A stretch of DNA of 64,000 nucleotides from Candidatus Omnitrophota bacterium (GTDB taxonomy: Bacteria; Omnitrophota; Gorgyraeia; JAFGGP01), in assembly GCA_016930485.1 (NCBI GenBank), contig JAFGGP010000011.1, positions 51,196 to 115,195 on the forward strand, written 5' to 3'. Within the stretch, counting starts at the first letter, position 1, and each line of letters opens with the position of its first letter. A model generated the notes under the pieces. That model worked only from the letters and a program-made list of their open reading frames with translations, was not told the DNA's origin and ran no database searches. Both the position numbers and the translations under genes were made by a program. Shown in pieces: positions 7,046 to 51,604 of the stretch.

Positions 7046-7132
7046 GAAGATTTTGTCTTGGGCCCTGGTTTTACTTGTGGCGGCCCATGCTTTTAGATAT
7101 AATAACATTTCAAAAACAGAGGAGCATTGATT

Positions 7133-8452: not shown

Positions 8453-8455
8453 GCC

Positions 8456-8911: not shown

Positions 8912-8912
8912 T

Positions 8913-10232
8913 ATGTATTATAAGGAACTGAAAAGGAAGATTCTAGCCAGAAAGGCTACGATTAGCGTTATCGGATTAGGCTATGTCGGTCTTCCGCTGA
9001 GCTGCGAGTTTGCGTCGCGGGGTTTTCGGGTGATTGGTATCGATCTCGACGAAACGCGCATCCGGTCGATAGCCGAAGGCACATCGTACATTCTTGATGT
9101 GCCGAGCCAACAGGTGAAGTCGTTTGTCAGTGCCGGCAGTCTGCGGGCGGAGGGCACCTTTGATGTGTTGAAAGAGGCCGACGCCATTATTATCTGCGTT
9201 CCTACACCGCTGGGAAAAACGCGAGAACCCGATATTTCATATATACTTTCCGCAACCGAACATATCAGTAGATGGTTGCGGAAGGGGCAGTTGATTGTAC
9301 TGGAGAGCACGACGTATCCGGGGACAACGGAGGAAATTATTCTACCGATGCTGAGCCAGAAGGGCTATACGGTAGGCAGGGATTTCTTTCTTGCCTTTAG
9401 TCCTGAGCGCGTCGATCCCGGCAATACCGAATTTCCACCCCATAAGATACCGAAGGTGGTCGGCGGGGTAACTGCCCATTGCTCCCGGGTGGCCTATACC
9501 CTGTATCACTCTATTATTGAGGAGGTTATTGCCGTCTCAACGCCCAGGACGGCCGAACTGGTAAAGCTGCTGGAGAACACCTTCCGCAGTGTCAATATTG
9601 CACTGGTCAATGAGGTGGCCCTTATGTGCAATAAACTGGGAGCCGATGTATGGGAGGTGATAAGGGCGGCCGGTTCTAAGCCCTTTGGCTTTATGCCGTT
9701 TTATCCGGGCCCCGGGCTGGGCGGTCATTGCATCCCCATCGATCCGGTATATTTGACGTGGAAGTCCCGCCTGAACGGATATACGCCGAAGTTTATCGAG
9801 CTTGCCGGCGAGATCAACCAGCAGATGCCTTCATACGTATTCTCGCGCATTCAGGACTCGCTCAACCTGCGGGGGAAGAGCCTGAAACGCTCTAAGATCC
9901 TTGTGATCGGCGTTGCATACAAGAGAAATGTCTCTGATACACGGGAGTCGCCGGCGCTGGAGATCATGAATTTGCTTCTGGCAAAGGGGGCAAAAGTAGA
10001 GTACCACGATCCCTATGTCCCGCACCTTACGGTACATAATGAGAACAAAAAATCGGTATCGCTCACAAGAGAGGAACTGCGAAAATATGACTGTGTTGTT
10101 GTCATAACCGACCATTCTTCAATAGATTACAATTCTATTGTAAAGGGCTCAAAGCTGATCATCGACACACGAAATGCACTGTCAACCTACACCAAAATCA
10201 AGAGGCCTTCTAAAAAGGTGGTTAAATTATGA
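8913..10232 (+). CDS. UDP-N-acetyl-D-hexosamine 6-dehydrogenase (TviB/WbpA/WecC family)
   Basis: ISVIGLGYVGLPLSCEFA Rossmann motif and nucleotide-sugar dehydrogenase central and C-terminal domains (GGHCIPIDP catalytic-Cys region). Confidence 0.75.
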   Translation: MYYKELKRKILARKATISVIGLGYVGLPLSCEFASRGFRVIGIDLDETRIRSIAEGTSYILDVPSQQVKSFVSAGSLRAEGTFDVLKEADAIIICVPTPLGKTREPDISYILSATEHISRWLRKGQLIVLESTTYPGTTEEIILPMLSQKGYTVGRDFFLAFSPERVDPGNTEFPPHKIPKVVGGVTAHCSRVAYTLYHSIIEEVIAVSTPRTAELVKLLENTFRSVNIALVNEVALMCNKLGADVWEVIRAAGSKPFGFMPFYPGPGLGGHCIPIDPVYLTWKSRLNGYTPKFIELAGEINQQMPSYVFSRIQDSLNLRGKSLKRSKILVIGVAYKRNVSDTRESPALEIMNLLLAKGAKVEYHDPYVPHLTVHNENKKSVSLTREELRKYDCVVVITDHSSIDYNSIVKGSKLIIDTRNALSTYTKIKRPSKKVVKL

Positions 10233-27241: not shown

Positions 27242-27250
27242 AAGGAACAA

Positions 27251-35777: not shown

Positions 35778-36983
35778 GTGCAAGAACGCATTAAACTGTT
35801 ATGTATCTGCAATGACCTGGCTATGGGGGGGATCCAGAAACTCCTGGTCACCACGGCCTCTGTTTTAAACAGGGATTTTTTTGATATTACGGTTTGTTCC
35901 ATAGGGAGCGATGTGACACTGGCTAAGGAGTTGGAAGATCTCGGTGTCAAGATTATTGCGTTAGGCCGAAGGTGTAAAATCTATAATATTCTTATTGCGG
36001 GGGATCTGTTTGACATCATAAGAACAACGAAGCCCCACATCGTGCATACACATTCATTCTACTCCAATTTTCACGGCAGGCTCGCGGCCTTTTTTTTAGG
36101 AGTTCCCTGCATCGTCGCAAGCGAACACGGGACCTATTCCAGCCGCAAGGGGCTGCGGCACAGACTGCTGGATTTGTGTTTGTCCGCCGTTTCCGACCGC
36201 GTTATTGCGGTATCACGTGCGGTGAAGAATTTTCTGGTCCAGGAAGAACATATTCCAGAGAAGAAAATCAGCGTTATCTATAACACCTTGGATTTCACAA
36301 AGATGGTTTCTCGCGATAGGGCCGTTGCACGGAAAGAGTTTCAATGGGAGGCCTCTGCCGTCTTATTGGGGCATGTGGGCACGTATACACCGACCAAGGG
36401 ACAGGATATAGCTATCGAGGTAATGAATCGCATCGTCCGCGATATCCCTCAGGCCTGCCTCATTCTGGTTGGGGCTGATCCAGTAAGGTATCGGAAGGTG
36501 CTTTCGGAGAGGGTGAGAGAACTGGGGCTGACCGGGAAGGTGCAGTTTTTTGACCGGGTAGATGATATGACCCTTTTTCTGAGCGCCCTCGATCTTTTTT
36601 TGTTCCCCTCTGCTACAGAGGGGTTTGGTCTTGCTGTTCTCGAGGCAGCCGCGATGGGAGTCCCGGTTGTCGCCTATGCTACCGAGGGAATACAGGAGAT
36701 ATTCGAAGACACCAGGGGCGTTTATCTGGTTTCGGAGAGAAGTCCCGAAGCGATCTCACACGCGACAAAAACGGTTATTTACAATATCGAACAGGCACGG
36801 GTCGATGCACTTCTGGTCAAGGAACATGTCAGAGAGAAATTTGCTCCAGGGATTTTTGCCGGCCAGCTAGAGAAACTCTACACGGATATTTTAACAGCGA
36901 AGGGCGTTGCGGTATTGCCGAAGGAATCGGTCTCCCGGTCGGAGCCAGCCCTTACCCAAACCTTTACCCGGAAGCCATCATGA
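35778..36983 (+). CDS. GT4-family glycosyltransferase
   Basis: GTG start after an AAAAGGAG RBS. C-terminal E-x7-E region FPSATEGFGLAVLEAAAMGVPVVA. Confidence 0.75.
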   Translation: MQERIKLLCICNDLAMGGIQKLLVTTASVLNRDFFDITVCSIGSDVTLAKELEDLGVKIIALGRRCKIYNILIAGDLFDIIRTTKPHIVHTHSFYSNFHGRLAAFFLGVPCIVASEHGTYSSRKGLRHRLLDLCLSAVSDRVIAVSRAVKNFLVQEEHIPEKKISVIYNTLDFTKMVSRDRAVARKEFQWEASAVLLGHVGTYTPTKGQDIAIEVMNRIVRDIPQACLILVGADPVRYRKVLSERVRELGLTGKVQFFDRVDDMTLFLSALDLFLFPSATEGFGLAVLEAAAMGVPVVAYATEGIQEIFEDTRGVYLVSERSPEAISHATKTVIYNIEQARVDALLVKEHVREKFAPGIFAGQLEKLYTDILTAKGVAVLPKESVSRSEPALTQTFTRKPS

Positions 36984-38071
36984 GACTTGTAACGGTTCTT
37001 GGAGCGCGGCCGCAGTTTATTAAGGCCGCATTACTTTCGCGTCTCCTCAGAGATGAGGGGGTGTCGGAAATCCTGGTCCATACCGGTCAGCATTATGAGG
37101 CGGAACTTTCGGATATCTTTTTCAGGGATCTTCAGATACCGACACCGGATTATGAACTGGGGGTGGGTTCGGGCAGTCACGCAGCACAGACCGCCTCTAT
37201 GATGGAGCGGCTCGAGCATGTTCTATGCAAAGAGAACCCTGATTATGTCCTGGTGTACGGGGATACCAATTCAACACTGGCTGCTGCCCTGGTGGCCGCA
37301 AAACTGAACATTCCCGTGGCGCACGTCGAGGCGGGTCTGCGCAGTTATAACCGCACCATGCCGGAAGAGATCAATCGCGTCATTACCGATCATCTTTCTT
37401 CTTTGCTTTTTTGTCCGACCGCTACCGCGGTTGACAACTTAAAGGCCGAGGGCATCACAGAAGGGATTTTTTGGGTCGGTGACATTATGTACGAATTATT
37501 TCTGCGTACACACGCGCGCTTGGAACTGAGTAGCGCGGTATGTGAAAAGTGGGGCATCCAGGAAAACCGCTATTATTTACTGACCCTGCACCGTCCGGGC
37601 AATGTTGACCACACAGAAACGCTGCGACTTACCCTGGATACCCTTTCCCGGCTTAAAGAAAAGATTATTTTTCCGCTGCACCCGCGGACAGCAAAGACCG
37701 TGAACATGCTCTATCAGGACGGCTTTGCGTTCGGCGACAATTTCATCGTCATGAAACCGGTTGGGTATCTTGAGATGTTGCAGCTGGAACGGTGTGCCAA
37801 GGCGATTATTACCGATTCGGGGGGTGTGCAGAAAGAGGCCTTTTTTCTTAGAAAGCCGTGTTTCACCCTGCGCCCGCAGACCGAGTGGATCGAGACGGTC
37901 AAGACCGGCTGGAATCAGTTGCTGTCGGTTGGGCCGGCTATGCTTGATGCACTTGAGGCCGTCAGGGAAGGCGGGGCATATGATGAGACCCTGTTCGGAG
38001 ACGGGGATACCGCCCGGAAGATATACTCTATCTTTAAAGAGCACGTTGTAACCCAAGAGGTGCCCAGGTGA
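36980..38071 (+). CDS. UDP-N-acetylglucosamine 2-epimerase (non-hydrolysing; WecB/WbpI/MnaA family)
   Basis: MRLVTVLGARPQFIKAA...VHTGQHYE...GDTNSTLA motifs of the Epimerase_2 family. Confidence 0.8.
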   Translation: MRLVTVLGARPQFIKAALLSRLLRDEGVSEILVHTGQHYEAELSDIFFRDLQIPTPDYELGVGSGSHAAQTASMMERLEHVLCKENPDYVLVYGDTNSTLAAALVAAKLNIPVAHVEAGLRSYNRTMPEEINRVITDHLSSLLFCPTATAVDNLKAEGITEGIFWVGDIMYELFLRTHARLELSSAVCEKWGIQENRYYLLTLHRPGNVDHTETLRLTLDTLSRLKEKIIFPLHPRTAKTVNMLYQDGFAFGDNFIVMKPVGYLEMLQLERCAKAIITDSGGVQKEAFFLRKPCFTLRPQTEWIETVKTGWNQLLSVGPAMLDALEAVREGGAYDETLFGDGDTARKIYSIFKEHVVTQEVPR

Positions 38072-39063
38072 ATAAGATTGTCGTGACGGGCTGCTGCGGT
38101 TTTATCGGGTCTCATGTCGTTGACGCCTTACTCAAAAAAGGGTACGAGGTAACCGGGATCGACGATCTCTCTATGGGGAATATGGACAATATGAGGGACG
38201 CCCTCTCTCAGGGTCATTTTACGTTTGAGAGATGCGACGTGTGCGACGCACAAAAAACAAAAGAGCTCTGTCGTTCCGCCGACGGCATTATACATTTAGC
38301 CGCGTATAAAATCCCCCGTTATAGCAGTGCCCTGCGGACCCTCACGGTTAACTCGTTCGGCACCTACAATATACTGGAGGCGGCACGGGAGGGAAAGGCG
38401 AAGGTTGTATTCGCATCTACCTCCGATGTCTACGGGAAAGGCGCTCAGATTCCCTTTGCGGAAGACGGCGACTCTGTCCTTGGCGCGAGCGATATCAACC
38501 GGTGGGCATATGCCACCTCGAAGCGCTTCGACGAACACCTCGGGTTTGCCTATATCCAGGAGTTCGGACTGCCGGTCGTGATACTCCGCTTTTTCGGTTC
38601 CTACGGCCCGAGACATCACCTGTCCTGGTGGGGCGGTCCGCAGAGCGTCTTTATCAGCGCCTTTCTGAAAGACGAACCGGTTACCATTCACGGCGACGGT
38701 CTGCAGACGCGCACCTTCATGTATATTGCCGATACGGTGCGCGGCGTGCTGGCCGCTTTGGAAAACGAGGAGGCAGACGGCGAAATAATCAACATAGGCT
38801 CTGAAACGGAAGTAACCATACTTAATTTAGCAAAAACTATCTACCGGCTTATGGGGAAGAGCGGTGAGCTGCCGCTCGAATTTGTTCCTTATGCAGCTTT
38901 TAAAAATCGCTATGAGGATGTGAGGAGACGGGTTCCTGATGTGTCAAAGGCCGAAAGACTGCTCGGTTTTAAGGCCAGGGTCGGTCTGGAAGAGGGGCTG
39001 ACCAGGACGATAAAGTGGCAAAGGGCGGCGATTACATCGATGGATAATCTTCAAACGACATGA
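38068..39063 (+). CDS. Extended-SDR NAD-dependent nucleotide-sugar epimerase/dehydratase/decarboxylase (ArnA-C-terminal/UXS-like candidate)
   Basis: VTGCCGFIGSH, YATSK catalytic region. 331 aa. Translationally coupled to the downstream formyltransferase. Confidence 0.65.
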   Translation: MNKIVVTGCCGFIGSHVVDALLKKGYEVTGIDDLSMGNMDNMRDALSQGHFTFERCDVCDAQKTKELCRSADGIIHLAAYKIPRYSSALRTLTVNSFGTYNILEAAREGKAKVVFASTSDVYGKGAQIPFAEDGDSVLGASDINRWAYATSKRFDEHLGFAYIQEFGLPVVILRFFGSYGPRHHLSWWGGPQSVFISAFLKDEPVTIHGDGLQTRTFMYIADTVRGVLAALENEEADGEIINIGSETEVTILNLAKTIYRLMGKSGELPLEFVPYAAFKNRYEDVRRRVPDVSKAERLLGFKARVGLEEGLTRTIKWQRAAITSMDNLQTT

Positions 39064-39857
39064 AAAAAATGCGAATCTATATCATGACGATGGACGAGCC
39101 ATTTTTTTTACCACGCTTTTTTCAGAAAATCGTGGAAACATATAAAGATGAGATAATCGAGATCGGCACCGTATCTTTTATTCCTCCCGGCAAATCCGTT
39201 ATCGCCTATGCACTCAATGAGATGAGGATGATGGGTCCGGGCGCATTTTTCAAGCAGATGTGTCTCTACCTATACTATCGTATATTAGACCGGATCTCGT
39301 CCGTCTTGCCTTTAAAAGGGGTATACTCAGTCAGGGCTTTGGGTGAGCGATACAGCATTCGGGTGCGAAGATTCGGAGATATAAATGCCCCCGAGGTCGT
39401 TGATTATCTAGCGTCCAGAGATATCGATCTTATTGTAAATCAGGCCCCGCAGATCTTTAAAAAGGAGTTACTGAACGTTCCCAGATTAGGCTGCATCAAT
39501 AAACACGCCTCTCTATTGCCAAGATATAGGGGGCTCTATCCTGTTTTTAGGGCGCTTCTGAATGATGAGAGGACGATGGGCGTTTCTATTCATTTTATGA
39601 ACGAAAAAATAGATGCCGGCAGCGTTATAGTCCAGGAATCATTTGTGGTAAAGGAAAGCGAAACCGTCTTTGATATGTATAAGAAGGTCTTTGATATAGG
39701 AGCCCGACTGATGATAGAAGCGATCGAACAGTGTCGTCTGGGTGTGCAGCCGTGTCTCTCTGTTTCTCTTTCGCATGAGTCCGGGGGTCATTTTTTTTCG
39801 GCGCCAAACGATGAAGAGATACATGCCTTTAGAAAAAAGGGATGGAAATTTATATAA
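39060..39857 (+). CDS. Formyltransferase-family protein (ArnA-N-terminal/Fmt-like)
   Basis: INKHASLLPRYRGLYP matches the H-x-SLLP-x-x-RG formyltransferase catalytic loop. Sits between an SDR and a DPM1-like GT2. Confidence 0.65.
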   Translation: MKKMRIYIMTMDEPFFLPRFFQKIVETYKDEIIEIGTVSFIPPGKSVIAYALNEMRMMGPGAFFKQMCLYLYYRILDRISSVLPLKGVYSVRALGERYSIRVRRFGDINAPEVVDYLASRDIDLIVNQAPQIFKKELLNVPRLGCINKHASLLPRYRGLYPVFRALLNDERTMGVSIHFMNEKIDAGSVIVQESFVVKESETVFDMYKKVFDIGARLMIEAIEQCRLGVQPCLSVSLSHESGGHFFSAPNDEEIHAFRKKGWKFI

Positions 39858-39868
39858 GGAAAAATAGC

Positions 39869-40672
39869 ATGATTTATTTTATAGTGCCTGCCTATAACGA
39901 AGAAAAAAATATCGAGACCCTGATTGCCAAAACTGCCGAAAAAATGGAGGAGCTCAATGAAGACTACCGCATTTTGGTCGTCAATGACGGTTCCTCAGAT
40001 AATACCGATCGCATTGTGCGGTCATTCACGGGCAAGGCAAACGTCGACATTCTGACGCATCCGACCAATTTAGGCGTGGGCGCGGCGTTCAGGAACGGCT
40101 TCAAAAAAGCCCTGGCAGAAACTACCGATGACGACATTATTGTGACCAAGGAGGCCGACAACACAAGCGATCTTTCCATATTAAAGGATATGACGCTCCA
40201 GATACGCGGCGGTTCGGACGTTGTGCTTGCCTCCTGTTTTACAAAGGGGGGAGGGGTAAAGAATTCTACCCCGTATCGCCATATGCTCTCCGCAGGGGCA
40301 AATGCGTTGATAAAGCTCTTTTTTAATATGAGGGGACTGCATACATTTAGTTCTTTTTACAGGGCGTATCGCCCTTCTATTCTGCGGACGGCTTTAGCAT
40401 GTTATGGTGGCAGACTTATTGAAGAGCCCGGCTACGAATGCATGGTAGACTCCTTGATAAAATTACACCGGCTTACCAGAAATATTTCAGAGGTCCCCAT
40501 GGTCCTGAGGTGCGATATGAGAGAGGGGAAGAGCAAGATGAAAGTGCTCAGGACAATCAGGGGTTATTTGAGGGTGGTATTTAAAAATCTCTTTTTGTTT
40601 CACGTAGGGAGAACGGGAAGCGATCACGACGATTTTCGCCGGGCAGTCAAAGGAGAGGAAAGAACGACGTGA
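39869..40672 (+). CDS. GT2 polyprenyl-phosphate sugar transferase (DPM1/ArnC/GtrB-like)
   Basis: MIYFIVPAYNEEKNIE...YRILVVNDGSSDNT DXD-containing GT-A core. Start chosen after an AAGGA RBS; the track ORF starts at 39842. Confidence 0.7.
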   Translation: MIYFIVPAYNEEKNIETLIAKTAEKMEELNEDYRILVVNDGSSDNTDRIVRSFTGKANVDILTHPTNLGVGAAFRNGFKKALAETTDDDIIVTKEADNTSDLSILKDMTLQIRGGSDVVLASCFTKGGGVKNSTPYRHMLSAGANALIKLFFNMRGLHTFSSFYRAYRPSILRTALACYGGRLIEEPGYECMVDSLIKLHRLTRNISEVPMVLRCDMREGKSKMKVLRTIRGYLRVVFKNLFLFHVGRTGSDHDDFRRAVKGEERTT

Positions 40673-42231
40673 ACAGAATAAAGAATTACTTTATCGACAA
40701 CGCCTGGCTTATCAGCTTGGTTATGGCTACGTTACTGTTCAGGCTGCCGGGTATTTTTCGGCCTGAAACCATAGGGGATGAAGGTAAGGCAGTTGCTATT
40801 ATACAAAAACCATGGGGGCAGTTTATAGATCAGCTCATTTATCTGGATGCCCACCCGCCGCTCTATTTCTGTTTCATAAAATGGTGGGGCACAATGAGTA
40901 GAGATCTATGGTTTTTAAGGATGTTTTCTATTATGTTGTCTGTCCTGACGTGTATAGTGCTTTTTAAACTCACCCGAAGGCTTTTTAATAAGACGGCGGC
41001 GATCATAACCGCTTATTTATTCACCATCTCCCCGCAACTGGTTTTTGTATTTCAGTATCTGCGGCCGTATGCACTGGCCACTTTCTTCTTTTCCGTTTTT
41101 TTATACCTGGCTGTACTGTTTATGCATGCCGGTTCCTTCAGGAAAGCGGCAGTACTTGGAATATGCCTCGGCGCAATCTCTTTTTTGCTTGCCTATACCT
41201 TTTATCTATCTGTTTTTATTCTCTTTGCCTTTGCCCTGGTTGCTGTAAAGATACTCTTCAAAGATAAAAAGAAATTGTGGCTCTTTCTCTCTTCCCAGGC
41301 CCTCGCCCTGTTGCTCTATGTGCATTGGCTTCCCATACTGCAGGCCCAGACGAGAGAATTATACGCAGGGACGGGAGGCAGCAATCCGTTATTACATGCC
41401 GAAAGAATAGGTTTTTATGCCGGCAGATTGCATGTGGGCAATTTTTGTAAGCTATGTGCCGGCCTTTTGCAGTTCGAGGATATCATAGGGCATTCGAGAA
41501 GATTTTCCGAACGGTTGCCGGCATTCTGGTTGTTTTTTATTACGGGGGCCGCTATCCTTTTTTGCGTGTATATACTGGCTGCATCAATGAAGCATATATC
41601 GAAGAATGAAAGATATAAAAATACGGGCCAGCTTCTTTTGGGAACTCTTATGCTGTCGGTCTTTTTTATTTCATTGAAACTGGTGGCCGGAGATTATGGC
41701 ATCGGATTTCCCGTGCATATGAATATGCGGTATCTCTGTCAGCTATCTATCATAGTCCTTATTATAATGGGTGTTCTCCTGGCGGCTCTCTCTAGAGCAA
41801 AAAGAACCCTCATCCTGACCGGCATCTCTCTTTTTTATATCGCCCAGGTTTTGTATATAAATTCATATCCGATGAATATGTACAGGGCAGCATTTGCATT
41901 TCTGAAAGGAAAGAATGTCGATACGATTATTGCCTGCCCTCAAAGCCCGTCATGGATTGCCTATGTGGATAAAGAGCAGGAGATAGAAAAAAGAGTGAAT
42001 ATCATCGAATGTAGAGATGAGGCGACCGAGAAGAATACCCTCAAACGCGTTTCTTTGCTTGATGAGGTTTGTGTGTATTATTTGAATAAGGCGGAAAATA
42101 CCATCAGATTTACCGGCATATACGAAGATCTGCTGACAGAGTTACATACTATGGGATTTGTTGAGCAGGACGCCAAAAACATAAATGACCTGATTGTGTT
42201 GAAGTATCTGGTACGGCGAACACGCTCATAG
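40669..42231 (+). CDS. GT-C fold polytopic membrane glycosyltransferase (ArnT/PMT_2-like)
   Basis: About 12 TM helices. First periplasmic loop carries GDEGK, a DE-type motif as in ArnT/PMT GT-C enzymes. Lies immediately downstream of the ArnC-like GT2. Confidence 0.55.
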   Translation: MNRIKNYFIDNAWLISLVMATLLFRLPGIFRPETIGDEGKAVAIIQKPWGQFIDQLIYLDAHPPLYFCFIKWWGTMSRDLWFLRMFSIMLSVLTCIVLFKLTRRLFNKTAAIITAYLFTISPQLVFVFQYLRPYALATFFFSVFLYLAVLFMHAGSFRKAAVLGICLGAISFLLAYTFYLSVFILFAFALVAVKILFKDKKKLWLFLSSQALALLLYVHWLPILQAQTRELYAGTGGSNPLLHAERIGFYAGRLHVGNFCKLCAGLLQFEDIIGHSRRFSERLPAFWLFFITGAAILFCVYILAASMKHISKNERYKNTGQLLLGTLMLSVFFISLKLVAGDYGIGFPVHMNMRYLCQLSIIVLIIMGVLLAALSRAKRTLILTGISLFYIAQVLYINSYPMNMYRAAFAFLKGKNVDTIIACPQSPSWIAYVDKEQEIEKRVNIIECRDEATEKNTLKRVSLLDEVCVYYLNKAENTIRFTGIYEDLLTELHTMGFVEQDAKNINDLIVLKYLVRRTRS

Positions 42232-42252
42232 AAAGGGACAGAGAAACTCGAT

Positions 42253-43002
42253 ATGCGTATTACCCACCCTGAAAAAAGGCTTTTTCGCTTTTACGGCGAA
42301 GTAGTAGCGGCACAAAATAGAGAAATAATCCGGTTAATAACCGGAAAAAGGATTTTGGAAGTTGGTTCTGGTTATGGTGCCTTGATTCATCAGATTAAAA
42401 CAGAGAAGACGGATGTAGAAAACATTACGGGGATCGAGATTGATCCGGACTCAATTGATATAGCAAAAAAATTATATAACATCGATATTATGCACTCTTC
42501 GGTTTACCAAATGGATTTCGAGGACAATGCGTTTGACACGGTCATATTGAGACATGTTGTCCATCACTTAAATGAAGACGGCAATTTAAAAGGGGCATTG
42601 GAAGAGATAAAAAGGGTGTGCAGTAGAGAACTCATTATCTTCGACCCAAACCCTACATGGCTCTTGCGTTTTTGCAGAAAGATGATAAGGCATGTGGATC
42701 CCGAGGCCTCTCTGGATTACGTGATAGATGCATTACAAAGGAGCGGTTTTGAGGTCGCATCCTATACGTGGAGAGACGTCCTGGCATTTCCCTTGAGCGG
42801 GGGATTTGTAGGTGCGGAGCTTGTGCCCAACCATGCTGGCATTGAAAACGCCATTCTTCGATTCGATACTTTTTTAAATACTGTCTTGTTAAAACTGCGT
42901 CTGCAAAAGTACTTTTGCTGGCGGTATCTGATATATGCCACAAAGTGCGGTTGTCATGCAGCCGGCGCTTTTGCCGGGAAACAGGAGGTAGGCGCATTGT
43001 GA
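42253..43002 (+). CDS. Class-I SAM-dependent methyltransferase (Methyltransf_11-like)
   Basis: ILEVGSGYGAL motif I and FDTVILRHVVHHL motif II. Confidence 0.65.
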   Translation: MRITHPEKRLFRFYGEVVAAQNREIIRLITGKRILEVGSGYGALIHQIKTEKTDVENITGIEIDPDSIDIAKKLYNIDIMHSSVYQMDFEDNAFDTVILRHVVHHLNEDGNLKGALEEIKRVCSRELIIFDPNPTWLLRFCRKMIRHVDPEASLDYVIDALQRSGFEVASYTWRDVLAFPLSGGFVGAELVPNHAGIENAILRFDTFLNTVLLKLRLQKYFCWRYLIYATKCGCHAAGAFAGKQEVGAL

Positions 43003-43934
43003 TTATTACGGTTCAAGTGGACCTTGACGGGTTATGGGTACTCAAAAAGGCCCTCGGCACCGAAGGGGATCCTGCCGAGGACACACTCTATGAGATTGCC
43101 CTGCGCCGGGCCCTGCAGTTTTTCGCGAAGTTCGGGATAACGGCGACTTTTTTCGTGATTGGGAGAGATCTTGAGATCGGTTGGAAGCGTTCACTGCTCA
43201 AGGACGTGCTCATCAAAGGGCATGAGATTGCCTCTCATGGTTTCAGTCATTCATATCTGACACACTGCGCATCCAGGCACAAGACGGAGGAGATATGGCG
43301 TTCGAGCGAAATTATAAAAAGGGAACTGGGGGTTTCCGCGCAGGGCTTTCGGGCGCCCGGTTATGCTGTTGACGAAGAGACGCTGGAGGTAATACACGAG
43401 GCGGGATTTGTTTATGATTCATCGGTTTTGCCCACCCGGTGGCTGTGGGCACTGTCTCTCCTTCAGAGAATGCGTTCCAATGAAAAGAGCGCCGGATATA
43501 CCGGGGGAAACTGGGGGAACGCCCCGAACCGCCCTTACTTTCATATGCTGAAACAGGGCTCTTTGCCGTTACTTGAAATACCCGTTACTGTTTCGCCGAT
43601 TGGGCGACTTCCGATTCATTTCAGCTATCTTGAGAAGTATCTATCTCCGGGCATCTTTGAATTTTTTATAAAAAAGATTGCCACCAGAGAAGATTTTCTT
43701 AATTTTGTCTTTCACCTGATTGATTTCGTTGACCGGACCGAGGACGATCGCGTCAACAGGCTGCTGTGCCTTTCCCGCGATTGGAAGAAGAAATGCGCCC
43801 TTATTGAGAATGTGCTTACGACGATTACCAAGAGAGGGAGGACGGTTGCTACGCGGGATGCGGCAGAGACCATACGCGCATGCAATACACCCTGTCTGAG
43901 AGAGGAGACGCATGACGTTATTACTTCCCGATAA
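42999..43934 (+). CDS. NodB-homology polysaccharide/carbohydrate deacetylase (ArnD-like candidate)
   Basis: TATFFVIGRDLE and GHEIASHGFSHS NodB motifs. Start placed at the GTG 7 nt after an AGGAGGTAGG RBS, overlapping the upstream stop; the track ORF starts at 42915. Confidence 0.7.
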   Translation: MIITVQVDLDGLWVLKKALGTEGDPAEDTLYEIALRRALQFFAKFGITATFFVIGRDLEIGWKRSLLKDVLIKGHEIASHGFSHSYLTHCASRHKTEEIWRSSEIIKRELGVSAQGFRAPGYAVDEETLEVIHEAGFVYDSSVLPTRWLWALSLLQRMRSNEKSAGYTGGNWGNAPNRPYFHMLKQGSLPLLEIPVTVSPIGRLPIHFSYLEKYLSPGIFEFFIKKIATREDFLNFVFHLIDFVDRTEDDRVNRLLCLSRDWKKKCALIENVLTTITKRGRTVATRDAAETIRACNTPCLREETHDVITSR

Positions 43935-44556
43935 AAGAAATATCTGTGTCACCGGCCCCACAGACCCGACGCACCGGCACTACCAGTTTGGTGTCCGCTA
44001 TTTTATGAATAAGAGGCTGGAGATGGCACTTGAACTGCTTGAGGGGGCTGGCGGGGTGCGGGGGAGGTTTCTGGATGCGGGTTGCGGAGGCGGGGTCTTT
44101 TTACCGGAACTGTCGCGCTATTCCGACCGGCTCTATGCGATTGACATACACCGCAATCTCGCCGCCGTCGAACAAATGTGTAAGAACGAGGAAATCAAAG
44201 CGCATTTTTCATGCGCCTCACTTAAGGATATACCTTTTCAGGATGAGACATTTGATACGGTTATCTCGATTAGCGTACTCGAATTTGTTGACGATCTGGA
44301 GCGTGCCGTGGCTGAACTCAAACGTGTCTTAAAAAAGAGCGGCAGGCTAATCGTTGGCTTTCCTGTGTTAAACTACGTGACCAGACTCGGTTATTTCTTG
44401 ATCGGATGTTTTATCGCGGAGAAGGTCCATACCGCGACCCATACGGAGATCCTGGCGGCTTTAAACAGGGAGTTCAAAAGCGGAAGGGTGAATTATTTTC
44501 CGAAATATGCACCTTCTCATGCCGCACTCTATGCCTGCGGTTTGTTTAGCAGATAA
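43912..44556 (+). CDS. Class-I SAM-dependent methyltransferase
   Basis: FLDAGCGGGVF motif I, FDTVISISVLEFV motif II, AGAGGAG RBS. Confidence 0.6.
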   Translation: MTLLLPDKRNICVTGPTDPTHRHYQFGVRYFMNKRLEMALELLEGAGGVRGRFLDAGCGGGVFLPELSRYSDRLYAIDIHRNLAAVEQMCKNEEIKAHFSCASLKDIPFQDETFDTVISISVLEFVDDLERAVAELKRVLKKSGRLIVGFPVLNYVTRLGYFLIGCFIAEKVHTATHTEILAALNREFKSGRVNYFPKYAPSHAALYACGLFSR

Positions 44557-44568
44557 AAGGGGACAGCG

Positions 44569-46026
44569 ATGAACACGCTTGCGCAGTCTTTACAGGGCAC
44601 ACCCTGTGAAACGAAACAATACTGGATTATCCTAACTTTGATAAGCGCCTGTCTAGGGGCGATTCCATTGATGCCTCTTGAGATACTGTGCCCTCTTACG
44701 ATTATTGTGGGCGGCATCCTGCTGGGGGCGTTATTCATAGGCACAACTGCGCGGGAAGAATTCGATAAGGTATTTACCGTATTTTTTGTGACATTTTTGT
44801 TGAAAGTTATACTGGCGACCGGTCTGGCCACACTCAGTTTGGCTGATGACGGCGACGCGTTTTTTCTCAGCCGGGATGATGCGGCCTACAGCATTGATGG
44901 GGAATGGATTGCCCGGATGTGGAATATGGGGTATTTTCTGAGCCGCTCCGAGATACTTACTGTGTATATGCCCTGGAATGGCTCTTTGGGTAATTATGAT
45001 TTCTGGAATGCGAAAATCTATTATTTCTGCGGGTACAGTCCTTTTTCTTTGCTGTATCTTAACTGTCTTGCCGTGAGCCTCGCGGTCATTTTAGTGTACT
45101 TAATCTGCAGGGAAATGGGATTGAAGAAAGCGGGTATTATAGCCGCATGGTTGACCGCGTTTTGCCCCTCGTTAAACCTGTGGGCTACCCAGAATCTGAA
45201 AGACCCTTTTCTGATTTTGGCGACTCTTGCAGGGGTATGGTCGTTAATGCGCCTGCGGAGGGGGTTTCATTTCGTTGCCTGTATTATGCTTGGAGTAGCC
45301 GGTATACTGCTGTTTTATTTCAGACTGCCTCTGCTTGCCTTATTTATGGCGGTTATTCCGCTGTGGTTATTTTTCACATCGGACATATGGTTTTTGCACA
45401 AGCGCAGATGGATAAAGGTGTTTTTACTGTGTGCCCTTATCGCATTTCCCTTCATGAATGTCATAAGGGCGAGGATATCTATACACCATATATTGGGTAT
45501 TCCAGGGGATACCAACATCTTTCACTGGATAGATTTTAACAGATCGGTCAGGGCCTACGGGGCCACTGCCTTTATGCCGGATGTTGATCTATCGAGTCCT
45601 CTGGCCATTCTGAAATTTCTGCCTGTGGGCATGTTTGTGGCTATTTTTTCCCCGTTCCCCTGGCAGTTGGGGAGCTCCCGTCAGATAGTCAGTGCGCCCG
45701 AGATGCTCCTTGTGTATCTTCTGTTTCCCTACGCCATTGCCGGGATCTCGTATATATGGAAAAACAGGTATCGGGAAACAGCGCTGATTGCCGCCGTTAT
45801 GCTTACCACGTTTAGCTTTATCGCCCTTTTCGATGCGAATATCGGTACTATGTTCAGACATAAGTCCATAGTATTTCCGTTTATCATCATTTTTATCGCT
45901 CAGGGCTACTGTTTGAAGAAGGAAGAGGCCCTTGCGGAAAAGAAGGGTGTTTGTGCGCAGCCAGGGAGAGGCGATACATCATACGCGGGGGATATTTCTG
46001 AAACATGTGATACATATGAGCAATAA
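44569..46026 (+). CDS. Polytopic membrane protein, putative GT-C-like glycosyltransferase or Wzy/ligase-type polymerase
   Basis: At least 11 hydrophobic helices with no soluble domain. Asp-rich first loop (ADDGDAFFLSRDD). Family assignment is uncertain. Confidence 0.35.
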   Translation: MNTLAQSLQGTPCETKQYWIILTLISACLGAIPLMPLEILCPLTIIVGGILLGALFIGTTAREEFDKVFTVFFVTFLLKVILATGLATLSLADDGDAFFLSRDDAAYSIDGEWIARMWNMGYFLSRSEILTVYMPWNGSLGNYDFWNAKIYYFCGYSPFSLLYLNCLAVSLAVILVYLICREMGLKKAGIIAAWLTAFCPSLNLWATQNLKDPFLILATLAGVWSLMRLRRGFHFVACIMLGVAGILLFYFRLPLLALFMAVIPLWLFFTSDIWFLHKRRWIKVFLLCALIAFPFMNVIRARISIHHILGIPGDTNIFHWIDFNRSVRAYGATAFMPDVDLSSPLAILKFLPVGMFVAIFSPFPWQLGSSRQIVSAPEMLLVYLLFPYAIAGISYIWKNRYRETALIAAVMLTTFSFIALFDANIGTMFRHKSIVFPFIIIFIAQGYCLKKEEALAEKKGVCAQPGRGDTSYAGDISETCDTYEQ

Positions 46027-47335: not shown

Positions 47336-48370
47336 ATGAACAGGGAGGGATGCGTGAATACAGTAGCTGTTGTCGGATGCGGGTATTGGGGGCCAAACCT
47401 TATCAGGAATTTTTTCCAAATGCCCAATGTGCACCTCGCCGCATTATGCGATCTTAATAAAGGGCGTCTGAGCAAGCTTGCTGCGCAGTACAGGATCGAG
47501 AAGATCACGACCGATTATCGCGAACTCATTGCCGATTCCGCCATCGATGCGATTGTCGTAGCGACCTCCGTCTCAACACACTACTCAATAGCCAGGGACT
47601 GCCTTCTGGGCGGAAAAGACGTGCTGGTCGAAAAACCCCTTACCTTTGATGCCGCCCAGGCACGGGAGCTGGTGGATATAGCCAAAAAAGACGGGCGCAT
47701 TCTTATGGTCGGCCACACCTTCGAATTTAATCCGGCCGTTATTAAATTAAAAGAGCTGATTGACTCCGGCGAACTCGGAGACATTTATTATGTATATTCA
47801 ACGCGCCTTAACCTCGGGGTCATCAGGGAAGATATTAATGCAATGTGGAATCTGGCGCCTCACGATATCTCGATTCTGTTGTTTCTTCTGGGAAACATGC
47901 CTCTTGCCCTCAGGGCATTTGGCAAGAGCTATCTCCAGAAGGGCATCGAAGACGTTGTATTCGCTACCGTCGATTTTCCCGGTAATATCTGTGCTCATAT
48001 CCATGTGAGCTGGCTTGATCCGAGCAAGACACGAAAGATAACGGTGGTGGGCAGCAGAAAAATGGTTGTCTATGACGACATTAACAACGAGGGGAAGCTC
48101 TGGATATACGACAAAGGGGTTGACAAGCTTGTCTCCGAGGACGGGGGCTACGGTGAGTTCCAGATTAAACTACGGGCAGGCGATCTTCTGGTTCCGAAGA
48201 TCCAACTCGTTGAACCCCTCAGGAGCGAATGTGAACATTTTATTGAGTGCGTCGAAAAACGCCTGAGGCCCCAGACCGACGGCGAGAACGGCTACCGGGT
48301 AGTGAAAATATTGGAGATAGCGGAAAAATCACTCAAGGCAAACGGAAGGGAAATGGAGGTCACACTGTAA
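47336..48370 (+). CDS. Gfo/Idh/MocA-family NAD(P)-dependent oxidoreductase (WbpB-like sugar 3-dehydrogenase candidate)
   Basis: VAVVGCGYWGPN Rossmann motif and a GFO_IDH_MocA C-terminal region. An alternative GTG start at 47354 has a better GGGAGGG RBS. Confidence 0.75.
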   Translation: MNREGCVNTVAVVGCGYWGPNLIRNFFQMPNVHLAALCDLNKGRLSKLAAQYRIEKITTDYRELIADSAIDAIVVATSVSTHYSIARDCLLGGKDVLVEKPLTFDAAQARELVDIAKKDGRILMVGHTFEFNPAVIKLKELIDSGELGDIYYVYSTRLNLGVIREDINAMWNLAPHDISILLFLLGNMPLALRAFGKSYLQKGIEDVVFATVDFPGNICAHIHVSWLDPSKTRKITVVGSRKMVVYDDINNEGKLWIYDKGVDKLVSEDGGYGEFQIKLRAGDLLVPKIQLVEPLRSECEHFIECVEKRLRPQTDGENGYRVVKILEIAEKSLKANGREMEVTL

Positions 48371-49513
48371 ATGAAAAATGCACAATCACCTGCAAAGGCA
48401 AGGATGAGTGTCCCTCTGGCCGATCTCAAACTGCAGTACCGGGCCATGAAGGATGAGATCGACAGGGCTATTTTTGAGGTTATCGAGGATACAGCGTTTA
48501 TCCTTGGCAAGTATGCCCAGGAATTTGAAAGGGAGTTCGCTGCGTATTGCACGACGAAACATGCCATAGGCGTCTGTTCGGGGACCTCGGCCTTGAGGGT
48601 GGCCCTTTTGAGCAGCGGTATCAAGGCGGGGGATGAGGTAATCACCACCCCCTATACCTTTATTGCCACCGTTGAGGCAATCACTGGCATGGGCGCAAAA
48701 CCGGTCTTTGTGGATATTCAGAAGGATACCTATAATATGAATCCTCGCCATATCGAAGAAAAGATCACCGAGAGGACAAAGGCGATTATCCCGGTCCATA
48801 TCTATGGTCAGCCGTGCGATATGGACCCTATTGTGGCGCTCGGCAGAAAATATAGTCTTACGGTAATCGAGGATGCTGCCCAGGCGCACGGGGCTTACTA
48901 TAACTCCCGCCGCGTAGGTTCGCTTGGTGACTGCGCCTGTTTCAGTTTCTATCCCGGAAAAAATCTCGGTGCCTACGGTGATGCGGGGGGCATTACGACC
49001 GACTCGGACAACCTTGCCCAGGAGGCGCGCCTGTGGCGGGATCACGGCAGAAGCAGCAAGTACTTTCACCAGCGAGAAGGGTTTAACTTCCGATTGGACG
49101 GCATCCAGGCGAACATACTGAAGGCGAAACTTGCCTATCTGGAGGAGTGGAACAGGCGCCGCGGCGAAAACGCAGCGCGCTACAACCGTCTGCTTGCCGA
49201 TATAGACGAGGTAACGACACCGTTCGTTGCCCCCCAGGCCACGCATGTCTATCATCTGTATGTCATAAAGGTGTCTGATAGGGACGCGCTTTTTGATCAT
49301 CTGCGGGCGCATGGTGTAGGCGTAGGCGTACACTATCCAGTACCGCTCCATCTCCAGGAGGCGTACACGCACCTCGGCCTGGGCGAGGGCGCGTTTCCGG
49401 TAGCCGAAGAGTGCGCGCAGTCTGTCTTGTCGCTTCCGGTTTTTCCGGAGCTGACACAGGAGCAGATTGAATATGTTGTTCAGTGTATAAAAGACTTTTA
49501 TACAAAGGGGTGA
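48371..49513 (+). CDS. DegT/DnrJ/EryC1/StrS-family PLP aminotransferase (WbpE/ArnB-like)
   Basis: GVCSGTSALRVALL, DEVITTPYTFIAT, and a PLP-lysine region SFYPGKNLGA. Confidence 0.8.
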   Translation: MKNAQSPAKARMSVPLADLKLQYRAMKDEIDRAIFEVIEDTAFILGKYAQEFEREFAAYCTTKHAIGVCSGTSALRVALLSSGIKAGDEVITTPYTFIATVEAITGMGAKPVFVDIQKDTYNMNPRHIEEKITERTKAIIPVHIYGQPCDMDPIVALGRKYSLTVIEDAAQAHGAYYNSRRVGSLGDCACFSFYPGKNLGAYGDAGGITTDSDNLAQEARLWRDHGRSSKYFHQREGFNFRLDGIQANILKAKLAYLEEWNRRRGENAARYNRLLADIDEVTTPFVAPQATHVYHLYVIKVSDRDALFDHLRAHGVGVGVHYPVPLHLQEAYTHLGLGEGAFPVAEECAQSVLSLPVFPELTQEQIEYVVQCIKDFYTKG

Positions 49514-49517
49514 TATC

Positions 49518-50477
49518 GTGATAACCGGGAAAAGACTGTTTATTACCGGCGGGGCCGGTTTTATCGGGACACATATCATTTCCCGTTTAATCGAGCATAA
49601 CGAGATTGTACTCTTTGACAATCTCAGGAGAAACGCCCTTCAGTATTTCGGGCTTGCCGACCACCCTCATCTGAAGAGCGTTACCGGAGACATTCTGGAC
49701 GCAAAGGCGCTTACCGGGGCCATGACAGGATGTGATCTGGTATTTCATCTGGCCGCGGTCGCGGGGGTTTCTTCATATTACAAAACACCCCTCAAGACCA
49801 TGGAGGTCAACGCCCTGGGGACCTACAATGTACTTACGGCCGCCAAAGAAGCCGGCGCCGGTCTCTTTGTTAACTTTTCGACCAGTGAGGTCTACGGCCC
49901 TGAGGCCGAGTGCGTATCCGAAGAGGATCTGACCAAACAGGGGTCGGTTACCGATAGACGGTGGACCTATTCGGTAAGCAAACTTGCCGCTGAACACCTG
50001 TGTTTTGCCTTTAGTGCCGAAGAGGGACTCCCGGTTATCTCATTCAGGCCCTTTAATGTCTACGGACCGGGGCAGGTGGGTGAGGGGGCCGTACAGATAT
50101 TTTGTCGAAACTGTCTACAAAACAAGGAGTTAGAAATTACCGGAGACGGTTCCCAGGTCCGGGCCTGGTGTTACATCGATGATATGGTCGATGCGGTTCT
50201 TCTGGGTGTGGAAAACAAGAAGGCACTCAACAATACCTTTAATATAGGCAACCCACAGGCGGCATGTACGATCAAGGAGTTGGCCTTACAGGTGATCGAA
50301 CTTTCCGCCTCAGGTTCCCGGATTACCCGTGTTCCGCATCCGGGAACGGATGTCTCGGTGCGCATTCCGGATATATCCAAGGCGCAAACACTGCTTGGTT
50401 TCCTTCCCGCTGTTTCACTCAGGGAAGGGATACAAAGGAGTCTCCAATGGTATGTACAAACCCTGAGGGCATTATGA
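49518..50477 (+). CDS. Extended-SDR NAD-dependent nucleotide-sugar epimerase/dehydratase/decarboxylase
   Basis: GTG start. ITGGAGFIGTH, YSVSK catalytic region. 319 aa. Confidence 0.7.
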   Translation: MITGKRLFITGGAGFIGTHIISRLIEHNEIVLFDNLRRNALQYFGLADHPHLKSVTGDILDAKALTGAMTGCDLVFHLAAVAGVSSYYKTPLKTMEVNALGTYNVLTAAKEAGAGLFVNFSTSEVYGPEAECVSEEDLTKQGSVTDRRWTYSVSKLAAEHLCFAFSAEEGLPVISFRPFNVYGPGQVGEGAVQIFCRNCLQNKELEITGDGSQVRAWCYIDDMVDAVLLGVENKKALNNTFNIGNPQAACTIKELALQVIELSASGSRITRVPHPGTDVSVRIPDISKAQTLLGFLPAVSLREGIQRSLQWYVQTLRAL

Positions 50478-51604
50478 AGATCCCTATCGCAAAGACGCAG
50501 TTTAGTGACAGGGTGGACGCCGAGCTGGTCAAGGTTGTCCGCTCAGGCTGGGTGGCGCAGGGGCCTAAGGTAAAAGAACTGGAAGAAAAACTAGCCGGCT
50601 ATACCGGCGCACGCCATGCGGTTGCCGTAAGTACCGGGACGGCCGCATTGCATCTGGCTATTCTGGCATATGGTCTTACCGAAGGCGATGAGGTCATCAT
50701 GCCTTCCTTCAGTTTTATTGCTACGGCCAATGCGGTTGTCTATGCCGGTCTGCGCCCTGTTTTCTGCGATATCGACCCGGTTACCTATAACATCGACCCT
50801 GATGTGATAGAGACATTAATTACCGAACGTACCCGGGCTATTATGCCGGTACATCAGTTTGGCATGCCATGCGACATGACAAAGATCGCACAGATCGCCG
50901 GCAGACACGATATTAAAATTATTGAGGATGCCGCCTGTGCACTCGGCTCGCTCTATAATGGCGTTCCTATCGGCAAGACGACCGGCATCGCCTGCTTCAG
51001 TTTTCATCCCCGCAAAACAATTACTACCGCCGAGGGGGGCATGATTACTACTGACGACATATCCGTCGCCGACCGCCTGTTTCGGCTGAGAAATCACGGC
51101 GACAACAGCTCAGGGCTCTCTACCGGAAAGTCCCCCGGCTTTCCCGATCAGTACGGCATCCTGGGCTTTAATTACCGCATGAGCGACGTGCATGCGGTGC
51201 TCGGGCTTGATCAGATAGACAGACTGGAGGAGTTTACGGTCTCACGGAATAACATCGCCGCCAGGTACAACGAGCGGTTGCGCGATATGGACTGCCTGCA
51301 GCTTCCGGTAATCCCCGAGGACAACGACAGGTGTAATTTTCAGTCGTATCTCCTCAGGCTCAGAAGCGACGCCCCCCTGAGCAGGGATGAGTTGGTAAGC
51401 AGGCTTTTGGTCAGGGGAATCGGCACAAAACAGGGGATACCACCGATACATTTACAGAGTATTTATACGGAAAAGGTGGGCAGGGTGCGTTTGCCGGTGA
51501 CCGAAGAGGTAGCATACGACTCATTTTTTCTCCCGATATTTCCGGCATTGACGGATCGGGAGTTTGATTACATTATCGGCACCCTTCGAAAAGTGCTTGC
51601 CTGA
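50474..51604 (+). CDS. DegT-family PLP aminotransferase (second copy)
   Basis: ATGA start/stop overlap with the upstream SDR. VAVSTGTAALHLAI, DEVIMPSFSFIATAN, SFHPRKTITTAEGG. Confidence 0.8.
   Translation: MKIPIAKTQFSDRVDAELVKVVRSGWVAQGPKVKELEEKLAGYTGARHAVAVSTGTAALHLAILAYGLTEGDEVIMPSFSFIATANAVVYAGLRPVFCDIDPVTYNIDPDVIETLITERTRAIMPVHQFGMPCDMTKIAQIAGRHDIKIIEDAACALGSLYNGVPIGKTTGIACFSFHPRKTITTAEGGMITTDDISVADRLFRLRNHGDNSSGLSTGKSPGFPDQYGILGFNYRMSDVHAVLGLDQIDRLEEFTVSRNNIAARYNERLRDMDCLQLPVIPEDNDRCNFQSYLLRLRSDAPLSRDELVSRLLVRGIGTKQGIPPIHLQSIYTEKVGRVRLPVTEEVAYDSFFLPIFPALTDREFDYIIGTLRKVLA

Follow-up and report, generated by a model that had tools for sequence, protein, structure and literature searches.

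A possible Arn-like lipid-carrier branch, built from other enzyme lineages, in an envelope-glycan operon of a Candidatus Omnitrophota bacterium

We analysed a stretch of 64 kb from the metagenome-assembled genome of a Candidatus Omnitrophota bacterium (contig JAFGGP010000011.1, positions 51,196 to 115,195), hereafter the window, whose own numbering is used for all positions and which covers an envelope-glycan locus with all its genes on the + strand. The subject of this work is a module at 38068-43934, for which a preliminary description of the DNA had claimed six open reading frames (ORFs): a short-chain dehydrogenase/reductase of the extended type (SDR), a stand-alone formyltransferase (FT), a DPM1-like family 2 glycosyltransferase (GT2), a polytopic glycosyltransferase of the GT-C type (GT-C1), a methyltransferase dependent on S-adenosylmethionine (SAM) (MT1) and a NodB deacetylase. 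All six were found on the + strand with the domains and the coordinates attributed to them. The module also runs past 43934, to a second methyltransferase (MT2) and then a second polytopic protein with about nine hydrophobic segments (GT-C2), and so reaches 46026 (Table 1). In the public annotation its genes are called 'GDP-mannose 4,6-dehydratase', 'hypothetical protein' and 'glycosyltransferase'. We give an even chance to the reading that the genes at 36980-46026, fed by those at 47336-51604 and 7127-10232, form a lipid-carrier branch of a large envelope-glycan operon that resembles the Arn pathway of lipid A modification with aminoarabinose (Ara4N) and is made of different enzyme lineages.

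Table 1. Genes of the module and genes of its putative sugar supply, in window numbering.
Feature	Position	Strand	Domain or model evidence
WecB/WbpI-like non-hydrolysing UDP-GlcNAc 2-epimerase	36980..38071	+	TIGR00236, 287.7 bits vs cutoff 210
Extended SDR, UXS-like clade, motif ASTSDVYG	38068..39063	+	Epimerase/GDP_Man_Dehyd, E 1e-50
Formyl_trans_N formyltransferase (FT)	39060..39857	+	PF00551, E 2e-23
Soluble DPM1-like GT2	39842..40672	+	Glycos_transf_2, E 2e-20
PMT_2 GT-C (GT-C1; GT39/GT83-like)	40669..42231	+	PF13231, 35.8 bits vs cutoff 26.1, E 1e-8
Class I SAM methyltransferase (MT1)	42253..43002	+	Methyltransf_11/25, E 1e-15
NodB/CE4 N-deacylase	42999..43934 (ORF as first given 42915-43934)	+	PF01522 Polysacc_deac_1, E 6e-18
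Second class I SAM methyltransferase (MT2)	43912..44556	+	Methyltransf_11, E 7e-24
Second polytopic membrane protein (GT-C2)	44569..46026	+	weak PMT_2, PF13231 28.1 bits
GFO/IDH/MocA oxidoreductase and DegT aminotransferase	47336..49513	+	WbpB/WbpE- or GnnA/GnnB-like 3-oxidation/3-amination pair
Second UXS-like SDR (STSEVYG) and DegT aminotransferase	49518..51604	+	SDR 49518-50477; DegT at 50474
UDP-glucose 6-dehydrogenase, cupin, second UDP-HexNAc 6-dehydrogenase	7127..10232	+	candidate uronic-acid suppliers

For the NodB gene the GTG codon at 42999 is the likelier start, giving a protein of 311 amino acids (aa), and the same start is used in public assemblies; the probable starts of the FT and GT2 genes are 39084 and 39869. 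The overlap of 4 nt between the SDR and FT genes, which had been read as translational coupling, is real. However, WecB/SDR, GT2/GT-C1 and MT1/NodB overlap by 4 nt as well, the overlaps within the module are of 4-23 nt and nearly the whole operon is similarly packed, so that SDR and FT are no more coupled than other gene pairs here.

The SDR was placed on the basis of score rankings and motifs. Among proteins of solved structure in the PDB, its best match was the human UDP-xylose synthase UXS1 (4gll/2b69, 168 bits), followed by 8vr2 (164 bits), a UDP-glucuronic acid (UDP-GlcA) 4-epimerase (134 bits), RmlB (about 113 bits) and the C-terminal domain of ArnA, or ArnA-C (95 bits). UDP-glucuronate decarboxylases therefore score above both the 4-epimerases and RmlB, which is the comparison that had been proposed for this enzyme, and of the earlier suggestion of an ArnA-C or UXS candidate the second part is the nearer one, the ArnA-C equivalog lying far below its cutoff (see below); none of the UXS-type curated models was passed by this SDR. 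As in UXS, the Thr, the Tyr-x3-Lys pair (YxxxK) and the arginine of the QTR motif are kept, whereas TSE has become TSD, with Asp in place of the catalytic Glu, throughout the clade of the window SDR. Precisely, ASTSD[VIC]YG was present in 42/42 close metagenomic relatives, and among library representatives TSD prevails in the top matches, with TSE or SSE only at greater distance. TSD is a character of the clade and not a one-off substitution. The probable activity of the enzyme is that of a UDP-(amino)uronate 4-oxidase/decarboxylase or of a 4-oxidoreductase that feeds the GT2.

Evidence for our reading comes from the surroundings of this clade. In a metagenome scan we collected 56 loci with SDRs 52-67% identical to the window SDR, 27 of which were at least 8 kb long; the GC content of the ten loci checked ranged from 0.31 to 0.70. 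We counted as a partner any protein detected by profile searches with defined queries within 10 kb of the SDR-clade gene, and Pfam scans of representative loci confirmed the assignments. A DPM1-like GT2 was found in 32/56 loci (23/27 long loci), WecB in 26 (20 long), a DegT aminotransferase in 24 (19 long), an LbH acetyltransferase in 24 (20 long), pairs of small EamA proteins in 19 (8 long), a GFO oxidoreductase in 17 (16 long), NodB in 14 (10 long), a dehydrogenase of UDP-N-acetylhexosamine (UDP-HexNAc) in 8 (7 long) and a PMT_2 GT-C in at least 7 (6 long), while a protein resembling amine oxidases that use flavin adenine dinucleotide (FAD) was present in 39 (22 long). The conserved partners are thus WbpA/B/D/E/I-like enzymes, the FAD protein, GT2, NodB, the EamA pairs (31% identity to E. 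coli ArnE) and GT-C, a set that includes neither Ugd nor ArnB, and an MT1-like gene adjoins the SDR in only one of the 56 loci.

Some of these partners are fused in other genomes. In two natural SDR-GT2 fusions (P0133 and P0144) each half shares 42-46% identity with its counterpart in the window, SDR or GT2, which supports a functional link between the two enzymes, and we know of no UXS fused or adjacent to a lipid-phosphate GT2, as the window SDR clade is. A NodB(DUF3473)-GT2 fusion of 574 aa in locus L141 matches both the window NodB and the window GT2, and a GT2-matching ORF of equal length (574 aa) in L125, not domain-scanned, is an apparent second case. Moreover, the window GT2 shares 43-46% identity with GT2s encoded immediately downstream of SDR-clade genes, the window NodB is 36% identical to that of locus L095, and in L141 the gene after the GT-C is MT2-like (32% identity). 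Taken together, the comparisons make SDR, GT2 and NodB a functional unit which recurs with ArnE/F-like flippases and GT-C, and this strongly supports a pathway that decorates by way of a lipid carrier and includes an N-deacylation. In the window the FT gene sits precisely between SDR and GT2, the very pair that is fused elsewhere, and occupies the position of the LbH acetyltransferase or the FAD enzyme in related loci. By tblastn we found no FAD amine-oxidase-like protein, EamA pair or LbH acetyltransferase in the window, and the FT is, for want of the last of these, the only local N-acylating enzyme.

The FAD protein, similar to amine oxidases and protoporphyrinogen oxidases and about 430-470 aa long, is the commonest neighbour of the SDR clade and usually lies directly downstream (loci L092, L095, L103, L105, L124 and L141 among others). 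We considered it as an enzyme of the UDP-galactopyranose mutase type and found no support for this assignment, as its PDB matches were of generic kinds (amine oxidase, protoporphyrinogen oxidase, phytoene desaturase).

The FT belongs to a rare family, for which about 13 full-length relatives were obtained among 5.8 billion clustered proteins, the other matches being Fmt proteins, in the C-terminal half only. The match to PF00551 is clear (83.7 bits vs cutoff 26.1), the catalytic triad N147, H149 and D185 is invariant in the family and the loop HASLLPRYRG is present. The protein is a short one without the OB C-domain, and its residues 47-82 form an additional helical hairpin; apart from this hairpin, its modelled architecture matches that of sugar N-formyltransferases. 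The AlphaFold2 (AF2) model (pLDDT 93) gave an E value of 4e-17 in the fold search and a TMq of 0.66-0.68 to the N-terminal domain of ArnA (ArnA-N), but Fmt, ArnA-N and WbkC match equally well and the fold does not discriminate among them. The claimed likeness to ArnA-N is compatible with the Asn-His-Asp triad and with the fold, but the ArnA and PRK06988 models both stay below cutoff.

We also considered the neighbourhoods of the FT family, for which 14 loci with readable neighbours were available among the matches listed. NodB adjoins the FT in 10 of these 14 and is one gene away in an eleventh, a GT2 of ArnC architecture, i.e. with a C-terminal transmembrane (TM) hairpin, is nearby in five, and DegT adjoins the FT in three; in locus L004 the order GT2-NodB-FT-DegT mirrors ArnC-ArnD-ArnA(N)-ArnB. 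These neighbourhoods favour a logic of formylation followed by deformylation, as a second line of evidence that does not depend on the SDR clade, and the NodB-GT2 fusions together with the conserved NodB-FT adjacency support links of NodB to both GT2 and FT. Two apparent NodB-FT fusions of 590-600 aa, in L012 and L013, were discarded as stop-to-stop artefacts of high-GC DNA, since only the formyltransferase part had a Pfam match and the upstream part was low-complexity read-through.

The association of FT with NodB, seen in 11 of the 14 listed loci, most of which are Wzx/Wzy exopolysaccharide (EPS) loci without any GT-C within 10 kb, could also reflect an acyl swap, in which NodB removes the N-acetyl group of a nucleotide- or lipid-linked sugar of the HexNAc type and the FT re-acylates it with formyl, the mature glycan being N-formylated and GT2 and GT-C being a separate decoration unit. 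N-formyl sugars are common in bacterial glycans, and acyl exchange is the obvious reading for another gene pair of the window, within its nonulosonic-acid pathway, where a second gene of formyltransferase fold (27251-27955, 250 bits to PDB 1zgh) is directly followed by a PIG-L deacetylase (27945-28625), so that the locus holds two separate deacylase/formyltransferase pairs. For the module itself we hold the swap to be unlikely: the NodB-GT2 fusion of related loci ties NodB to the lipid-carrier step and not to the FT, and the GT2 and DegT genes found beside FT-NodB (in five and three of the listed loci) fit the formylation of an aminotransferase product better than a change of acyl group.

As regards the GT2, its best PDB match was the dolichol-phosphate mannose synthase of P. 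furiosus (66 bits), followed by ArnC (41 bits), and its best NCBIfam matches were ArnC, PpgS (47.5 bits) and PgfS, all below cutoff; on these similarities it is a candidate polyprenyl-phosphate sugar synthase. GT-C1 has about 9-10 TM helices and a C-terminal alpha/beta domain, and carries a DE motif after TM1, of which D37 and E38, like other residues, are invariant. As no PDB sequence matched it even at E 10, we relied on an AF2 model (pLDDT 75), which has a GT-C_A fold; ArnT (5ezm) ranks first by reciprocal TM-score (0.55/0.53) and STT3 by E-value, so that neither is the better match. The ArnT-like character once assigned to it thus agrees with the predicted ArnT/STT3-type fold, but E. coli ArnT itself matched none of the four GT-C proteins of the window. 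Only two homologues of GT-C1 were found among the 5.8 billion proteins, and the more distant (28% identity) adjoins an SDR 46% identical to that of the window.

NodB was assigned by PF01522 (65.5 bits vs cutoff 23.1) and by the motifs VDLD, HGFSH and RAPGY; its nearest model is that of the uncharacterised TIGR03006/DUF3473 group (TIGR03006, 77 bits), and no TM or signal segment was found in it, which points to a cytoplasmic protein. It is a candidate deformylase or deacetylase of a lipid-linked sugar. Of the ArnD-like deformylase of the preliminary description, what remains is a NodB/CE4 protein with its metal-site motifs, as neither phmmer nor BLAST returned any match between it and E. coli ArnD.

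The genes that may supply the sugar lie outside the six-gene stretch; indeed, neither an aminotransferase nor a flippase of the ArnE/F type is encoded inside 38068-43934. The Ugd expected near 7133 is a UDP-glucose 6-dehydrogenase at 7127-8452 (TuaD model, 587 bits), and the DegT aminotransferases expected at 48371 and 50474 are both there. A second 6-dehydrogenase at 8913-10232, with 282 and 242 bits to the WecC- and TviB-like models, is of a type that co-occurs with the SDR clade (50-53% identity), and the GFO and DegT pair at 47336..49513 likewise belongs to the conserved partner types of that clade. The second SDR, encoded at 49518-50477, carries STSEVYG, the canonical form of the motif, scores 323 bits against PDB 8vr2 (about 58% identical) and 161 bits against UXS1, and overlaps the DegT gene at 50474 by 4 nt, an SDR-DegT adjacency kept in L151 and L152. 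These two are the best candidate pair of 4-keto-sugar synthase and aminotransferase for the FT substrate; a literature search on the function of 8VR2 returned no relevant paper. In L150, L151 and L152 relatives of this second SDR adjoin an FAD amine-oxidase-like protein, DegT, an LbH acetyltransferase, B12-radical-SAM enzymes, PMT_2 GT-Cs or a carbamoyltransferase.

On the reading of an Arn-like lipid-carrier branch, a cytoplasmic UDP-sugar would be tailored to a UDP-amino sugar by WecB, by the TSD-type SDR, for which a UDP-uronic or aminouronic acid is the probable substrate, and by the downstream oxidoreductase/aminotransferase pairs. The stand-alone FT, with its complete triad, would then N-formylate the free amine, the presumed substrate, and the soluble DPM1-like GT2 would move the N-acyl sugar to polyprenyl phosphate. 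The cytoplasmic NodB would strip the N-acyl group from the lipid-linked sugar, some flippase would bring the lipid-linked amino sugar across the membrane, and at the inner membrane's outer face GT-C1 would transfer the sugar to an acceptor, the likeliest being the polysaccharide or lipopolysaccharide (LPS) that this locus itself produces. MT1 and MT2 may add methyl groups at some stage. The sugar transferred is probably not Ara4N. In fact, the WbpA/B/D/E/I-like partners of the SDR clade suggest, in preference to it, a (di)amino sugar derived from UDP-HexNAc, possibly decarboxylated.

Several observations weigh against this proposal. None of the module enzymes reached a curated equivalog threshold. 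An FT of the window type was found near the SDR clade in none of the 56 loci, hence in none of the 27 long ones, so that the place of the FT in the pathway is deduced from a single genome. The GT2 has no hydrophobic segment and therefore not the C-terminal membrane hairpin of ArnC and GtrB, and its DxD motif reads EAD. No ORF for an ArnE/F, GtrA or SMR-type (EamA/SMR-like) flippase was found in the window. Finally, the closest homologue of GT-C1 (38%, locus L008) lies in a nonulosonic-acid/GT30 locus with no GT2, NodB or FT nearby, and the pairing of GT2 with GT-C1 is consequently argued from their being neighbours here and by analogy from other loci; GT-C1 may instead be tied to the nonulosonic-acid glycan. 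In a comparison with 28658-31155 and 40669-42231 of the window, L008 also has NeuB, methyltransferases and a GT30 enzyme that resembles Kdo transferases and is 31% identical to its window counterpart. As for the flippase, the only small ORF with several TM segments, at 53965-54282, was tried as a GtrA/SMR/ArnE protein and rejected, as it matched no family and did not resemble ArnE/F; it encodes 105 aa with four hydrophobic segments and a YeaQ/GlsB-like look, and overlaps the end of a double GT4 gene.

Part of the same evidence could be accommodated with no dedicated module at all, if the six genes were independent main-chain steps of repeat-unit synthesis in an operon of 50 genes and the GT-Cs were polymerase/ligase-like enzymes or protein O-glycosyltransferases. 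Almost all gene pairs of the operon overlap or abut, which makes coupling uninformative, the window has four PMT_2 proteins, the closest GT-C1 homologue stands apart from GT2, NodB and FT, and large secreted proteins adjoin related modules. We nevertheless judge this explanation improbable, because the SDR-GT2 and NodB-GT2 fusions and the co-localisation of SDR, GT2, NodB, EamA and GT-C in genomes of varied GC content would be hard to explain without a functional link. The secreted-type proteins are very large and lie in or beside SDR-GT2-GT-C modules, at 13874-16906 of L105 and 17378-20722 of L141 (DUF4082/Big_1/DMFA2_C, and FlgD_ig); the GT-C enzymes may have them as protein acceptors.

The comparison with Arn (PmrF) deserves a closer account, as the gene order had been taken to mirror that operon. 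In its succession of domains the module does match ArnA(C)-ArnA(N)-ArnC-ArnT-ArnD, and the enzyme classes are the same (an SDR of UXS/ArnA type, a folate-type N-formyltransferase, a putative polyprenyl-phosphate GT2, a CE4 N-deacylase and a GT-C), as is probably the logic, with DegT aminotransferases and Ugd in the same operon, but the identity of the pathway with that of Ara4N did not hold. No window protein is orthologous to its Arn counterpart: against E. coli K-12 the SDR is 28% identical to ArnA-C, the FT 27% to ArnA-N over 140 residues and the GT2 28% to ArnC, and nothing was detectable for ArnD and ArnT. A split of ArnA into two genes could not be upheld, as the SDR half scores 109 bits and the FT half 78.5 bits against the ArnA model NF005998 (cutoff 777), and the stand-alone models are not reached either, with 115 bits for the SDR against a cutoff of 294 (NF008872, keto-pentose/xylose synthase) and 79 (78.7) bits for the FT against 316 (PRK06988, formyltransferase). 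Nor would a split ArnA be a novelty, since stand-alone ArnA1/ArnA2 are already known in Burkholderia/Ralstonia, the arrangement modelled by NF005414 and NF008872. The GT2, DPM1/ArnC-like as had been proposed, stays at 54 (53.8) bits against a cutoff of 529 in the ArnC model NF007986 and lacks the hairpin, and the DegT at 50474, although 36% identical to E. coli ArnB, gives 294 bits against a cutoff of 631 in NF008658 and scores higher with the PseC model. The window also differs from Arn in the TSD motif, in the absence of an ArnE/F pair, of which the like occurs in 19 of the 56 related loci, in two methyltransferases and a second GT-C interposed, and in its capsule/EPS-type setting.

Therefore a true Ara4N pathway of lipid A or core with a split ArnA (UDP-GlcA to 4-keto-pentose, UDP-Ara4N, N-formylation, undecaprenyl-phosphate (Und-P)-Ara4FN, deformylation and transfer of ArnT type) is very improbable, despite the parallel domain order, the Ugd, the SDR closer to UXS/ArnA than to epimerases, the TSE-type UXS-like SDR with its ArnB-like DegT downstream and the LptD that indicates an outer membrane with LPS, because every Arn equivalog model stays far under its cutoff, no sequence similarity to ArnD and ArnT was found, ArnE/F are absent, the SDR is distant from ArnA-C and TSD instead of TSE, its clade keeps UDP-HexNAc enzymes as partners and not Ugd with ArnB, and the module lies within a locus of capsule type (Wzi/Wza/Wzx) that has four GT-C genes, and not in a lipid A operon.

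Other systems deliver amino sugars from a lipid carrier after removal of an N-acetyl group, namely FlmF2/NaxD/FlmK of Francisella, for galactosamine (GalN), LgmA/B/C of Bordetella, for glucosamine (GlcN), and PpgS/Rv3779 of mycobacteria, for GalN. In these systems a GT2 charges polyprenyl phosphate with an N-acyl sugar, a deacylase exposes its amino group and a GT-C passes the cationic sugar on; they start directly from UDP-HexNAc, without SDR or formyltransferase; PpgS is a short soluble GT2, and NaxD is of the YdjC family and not a NodB. The Omnitrophota module would share the sequence of GT2, deacylase and GT-C, and its GT2 is soluble like PpgS or eukaryotic DPM1, but it has in addition the SDR and the formyltransferase.

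It can be compared also with three-component periplasmic glycosylation of the GtrA/B/C type, which has been extended to pentofuranose systems with an auxiliary SDR that diversifies the donor and a donor synthase dependent on phosphoribosyl pyrophosphate (PRPP) (Kelly et al. 2024, PMC11127046). Common to both would be a synthase of a lipid-linked monosaccharide donor and a GT-C inside a polysaccharide locus, and GT-C1 has, in the model, the GT-C fold and the acidic motif after TM1. Unlike in those systems, the putative donor synthase of the window is a GT2 and not PRPP-dependent, no dedicated flippase is recognisable near the module, and steps of N-acylation and N-deacylation would be added. 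What sets the module apart from all these known systems is its enzyme lineages, the combination of a rare FT with a widespread and uncharacterised SDR-GT2-NodB module, the lack of a recognisable flippase and the capsule-type locus.

From left to right the window has LptD, a sign of an outer membrane with LPS, followed by the two UDP-sugar 6-dehydrogenases, a 4-epimerase resembling TviC, Wzi, Wza and a protein resembling Wzz, and then by a complete nonulosonic-acid pathway (pseudaminic/legionaminic-like, 16931-28625), a GT30 transferase, Wzx, radical-SAM enzymes and many GT4 enzymes. The locus is of the envelope-polysaccharide kind (capsule/LPS-type) and not a lipid A modification operon. The Wzx/MOP protein at 31172-32761 is the only flippase candidate of the window. 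The four PMT_2-type GT-C proteins (40669-42231, 44569-46026, 57148-58467 and 62020-63774) lie in one operon, an unusual density for a single glycan locus, and the one at 57148 comes directly after another GT2 (56226-57179). Two radical-SAM/SPASM proteins are encoded in the glycan operon, at 34669-35727 and 58515-60686, and the fusion of the second to a GT4 suggests radical chemistry on the sugar or the glycan. A protein of 631 aa (32769-34664) had no NCBIfam match and only weak matches to Epimerase_2 and Capsule_synth in its C-terminal half, which leaves the 370 N-terminal residues unassigned, and is possibly a transferase of the KpsS/CDP-glycerol type. Just upstream of LptD, at 773-3477, two consecutive GGDEF diguanylate cyclases, one of them with GAF, and a ROK kinase hint at a control of the polysaccharide by cyclic di-GMP.

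A bolder form of our reading, which we put forward as tentative and consider doubtful, would make the module a second lipid-carrier pathway of the 'formyl on, formyl off' kind, evolved independently of Arn, in which the rare FT and NodB are a portable cassette for transient N-protection, spread across many phyla and grafted here onto the widespread SDR-GT2-NodB-GT-C module so as to deliver a new cationic sugar, e.g. a decarboxylated 2,3-diamino sugar, to the Omnitrophota envelope. If our main reading of the module is right, transient N-acyl protection on a lipid carrier would be a general strategy, assembled repeatedly, and not a peculiarity of Arn. The analysis also singles out two uncharacterised enzyme families with clear partners, the TSD-type UXS-like SDRs, fused in some genomes to a putative polyprenyl-phosphate GT2, and the short FTs that are nearly always paired with NodB. 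We know of no cultured representatives of Omnitrophota for such envelope work, and the module offers a first handle on the envelope chemistry of this group.

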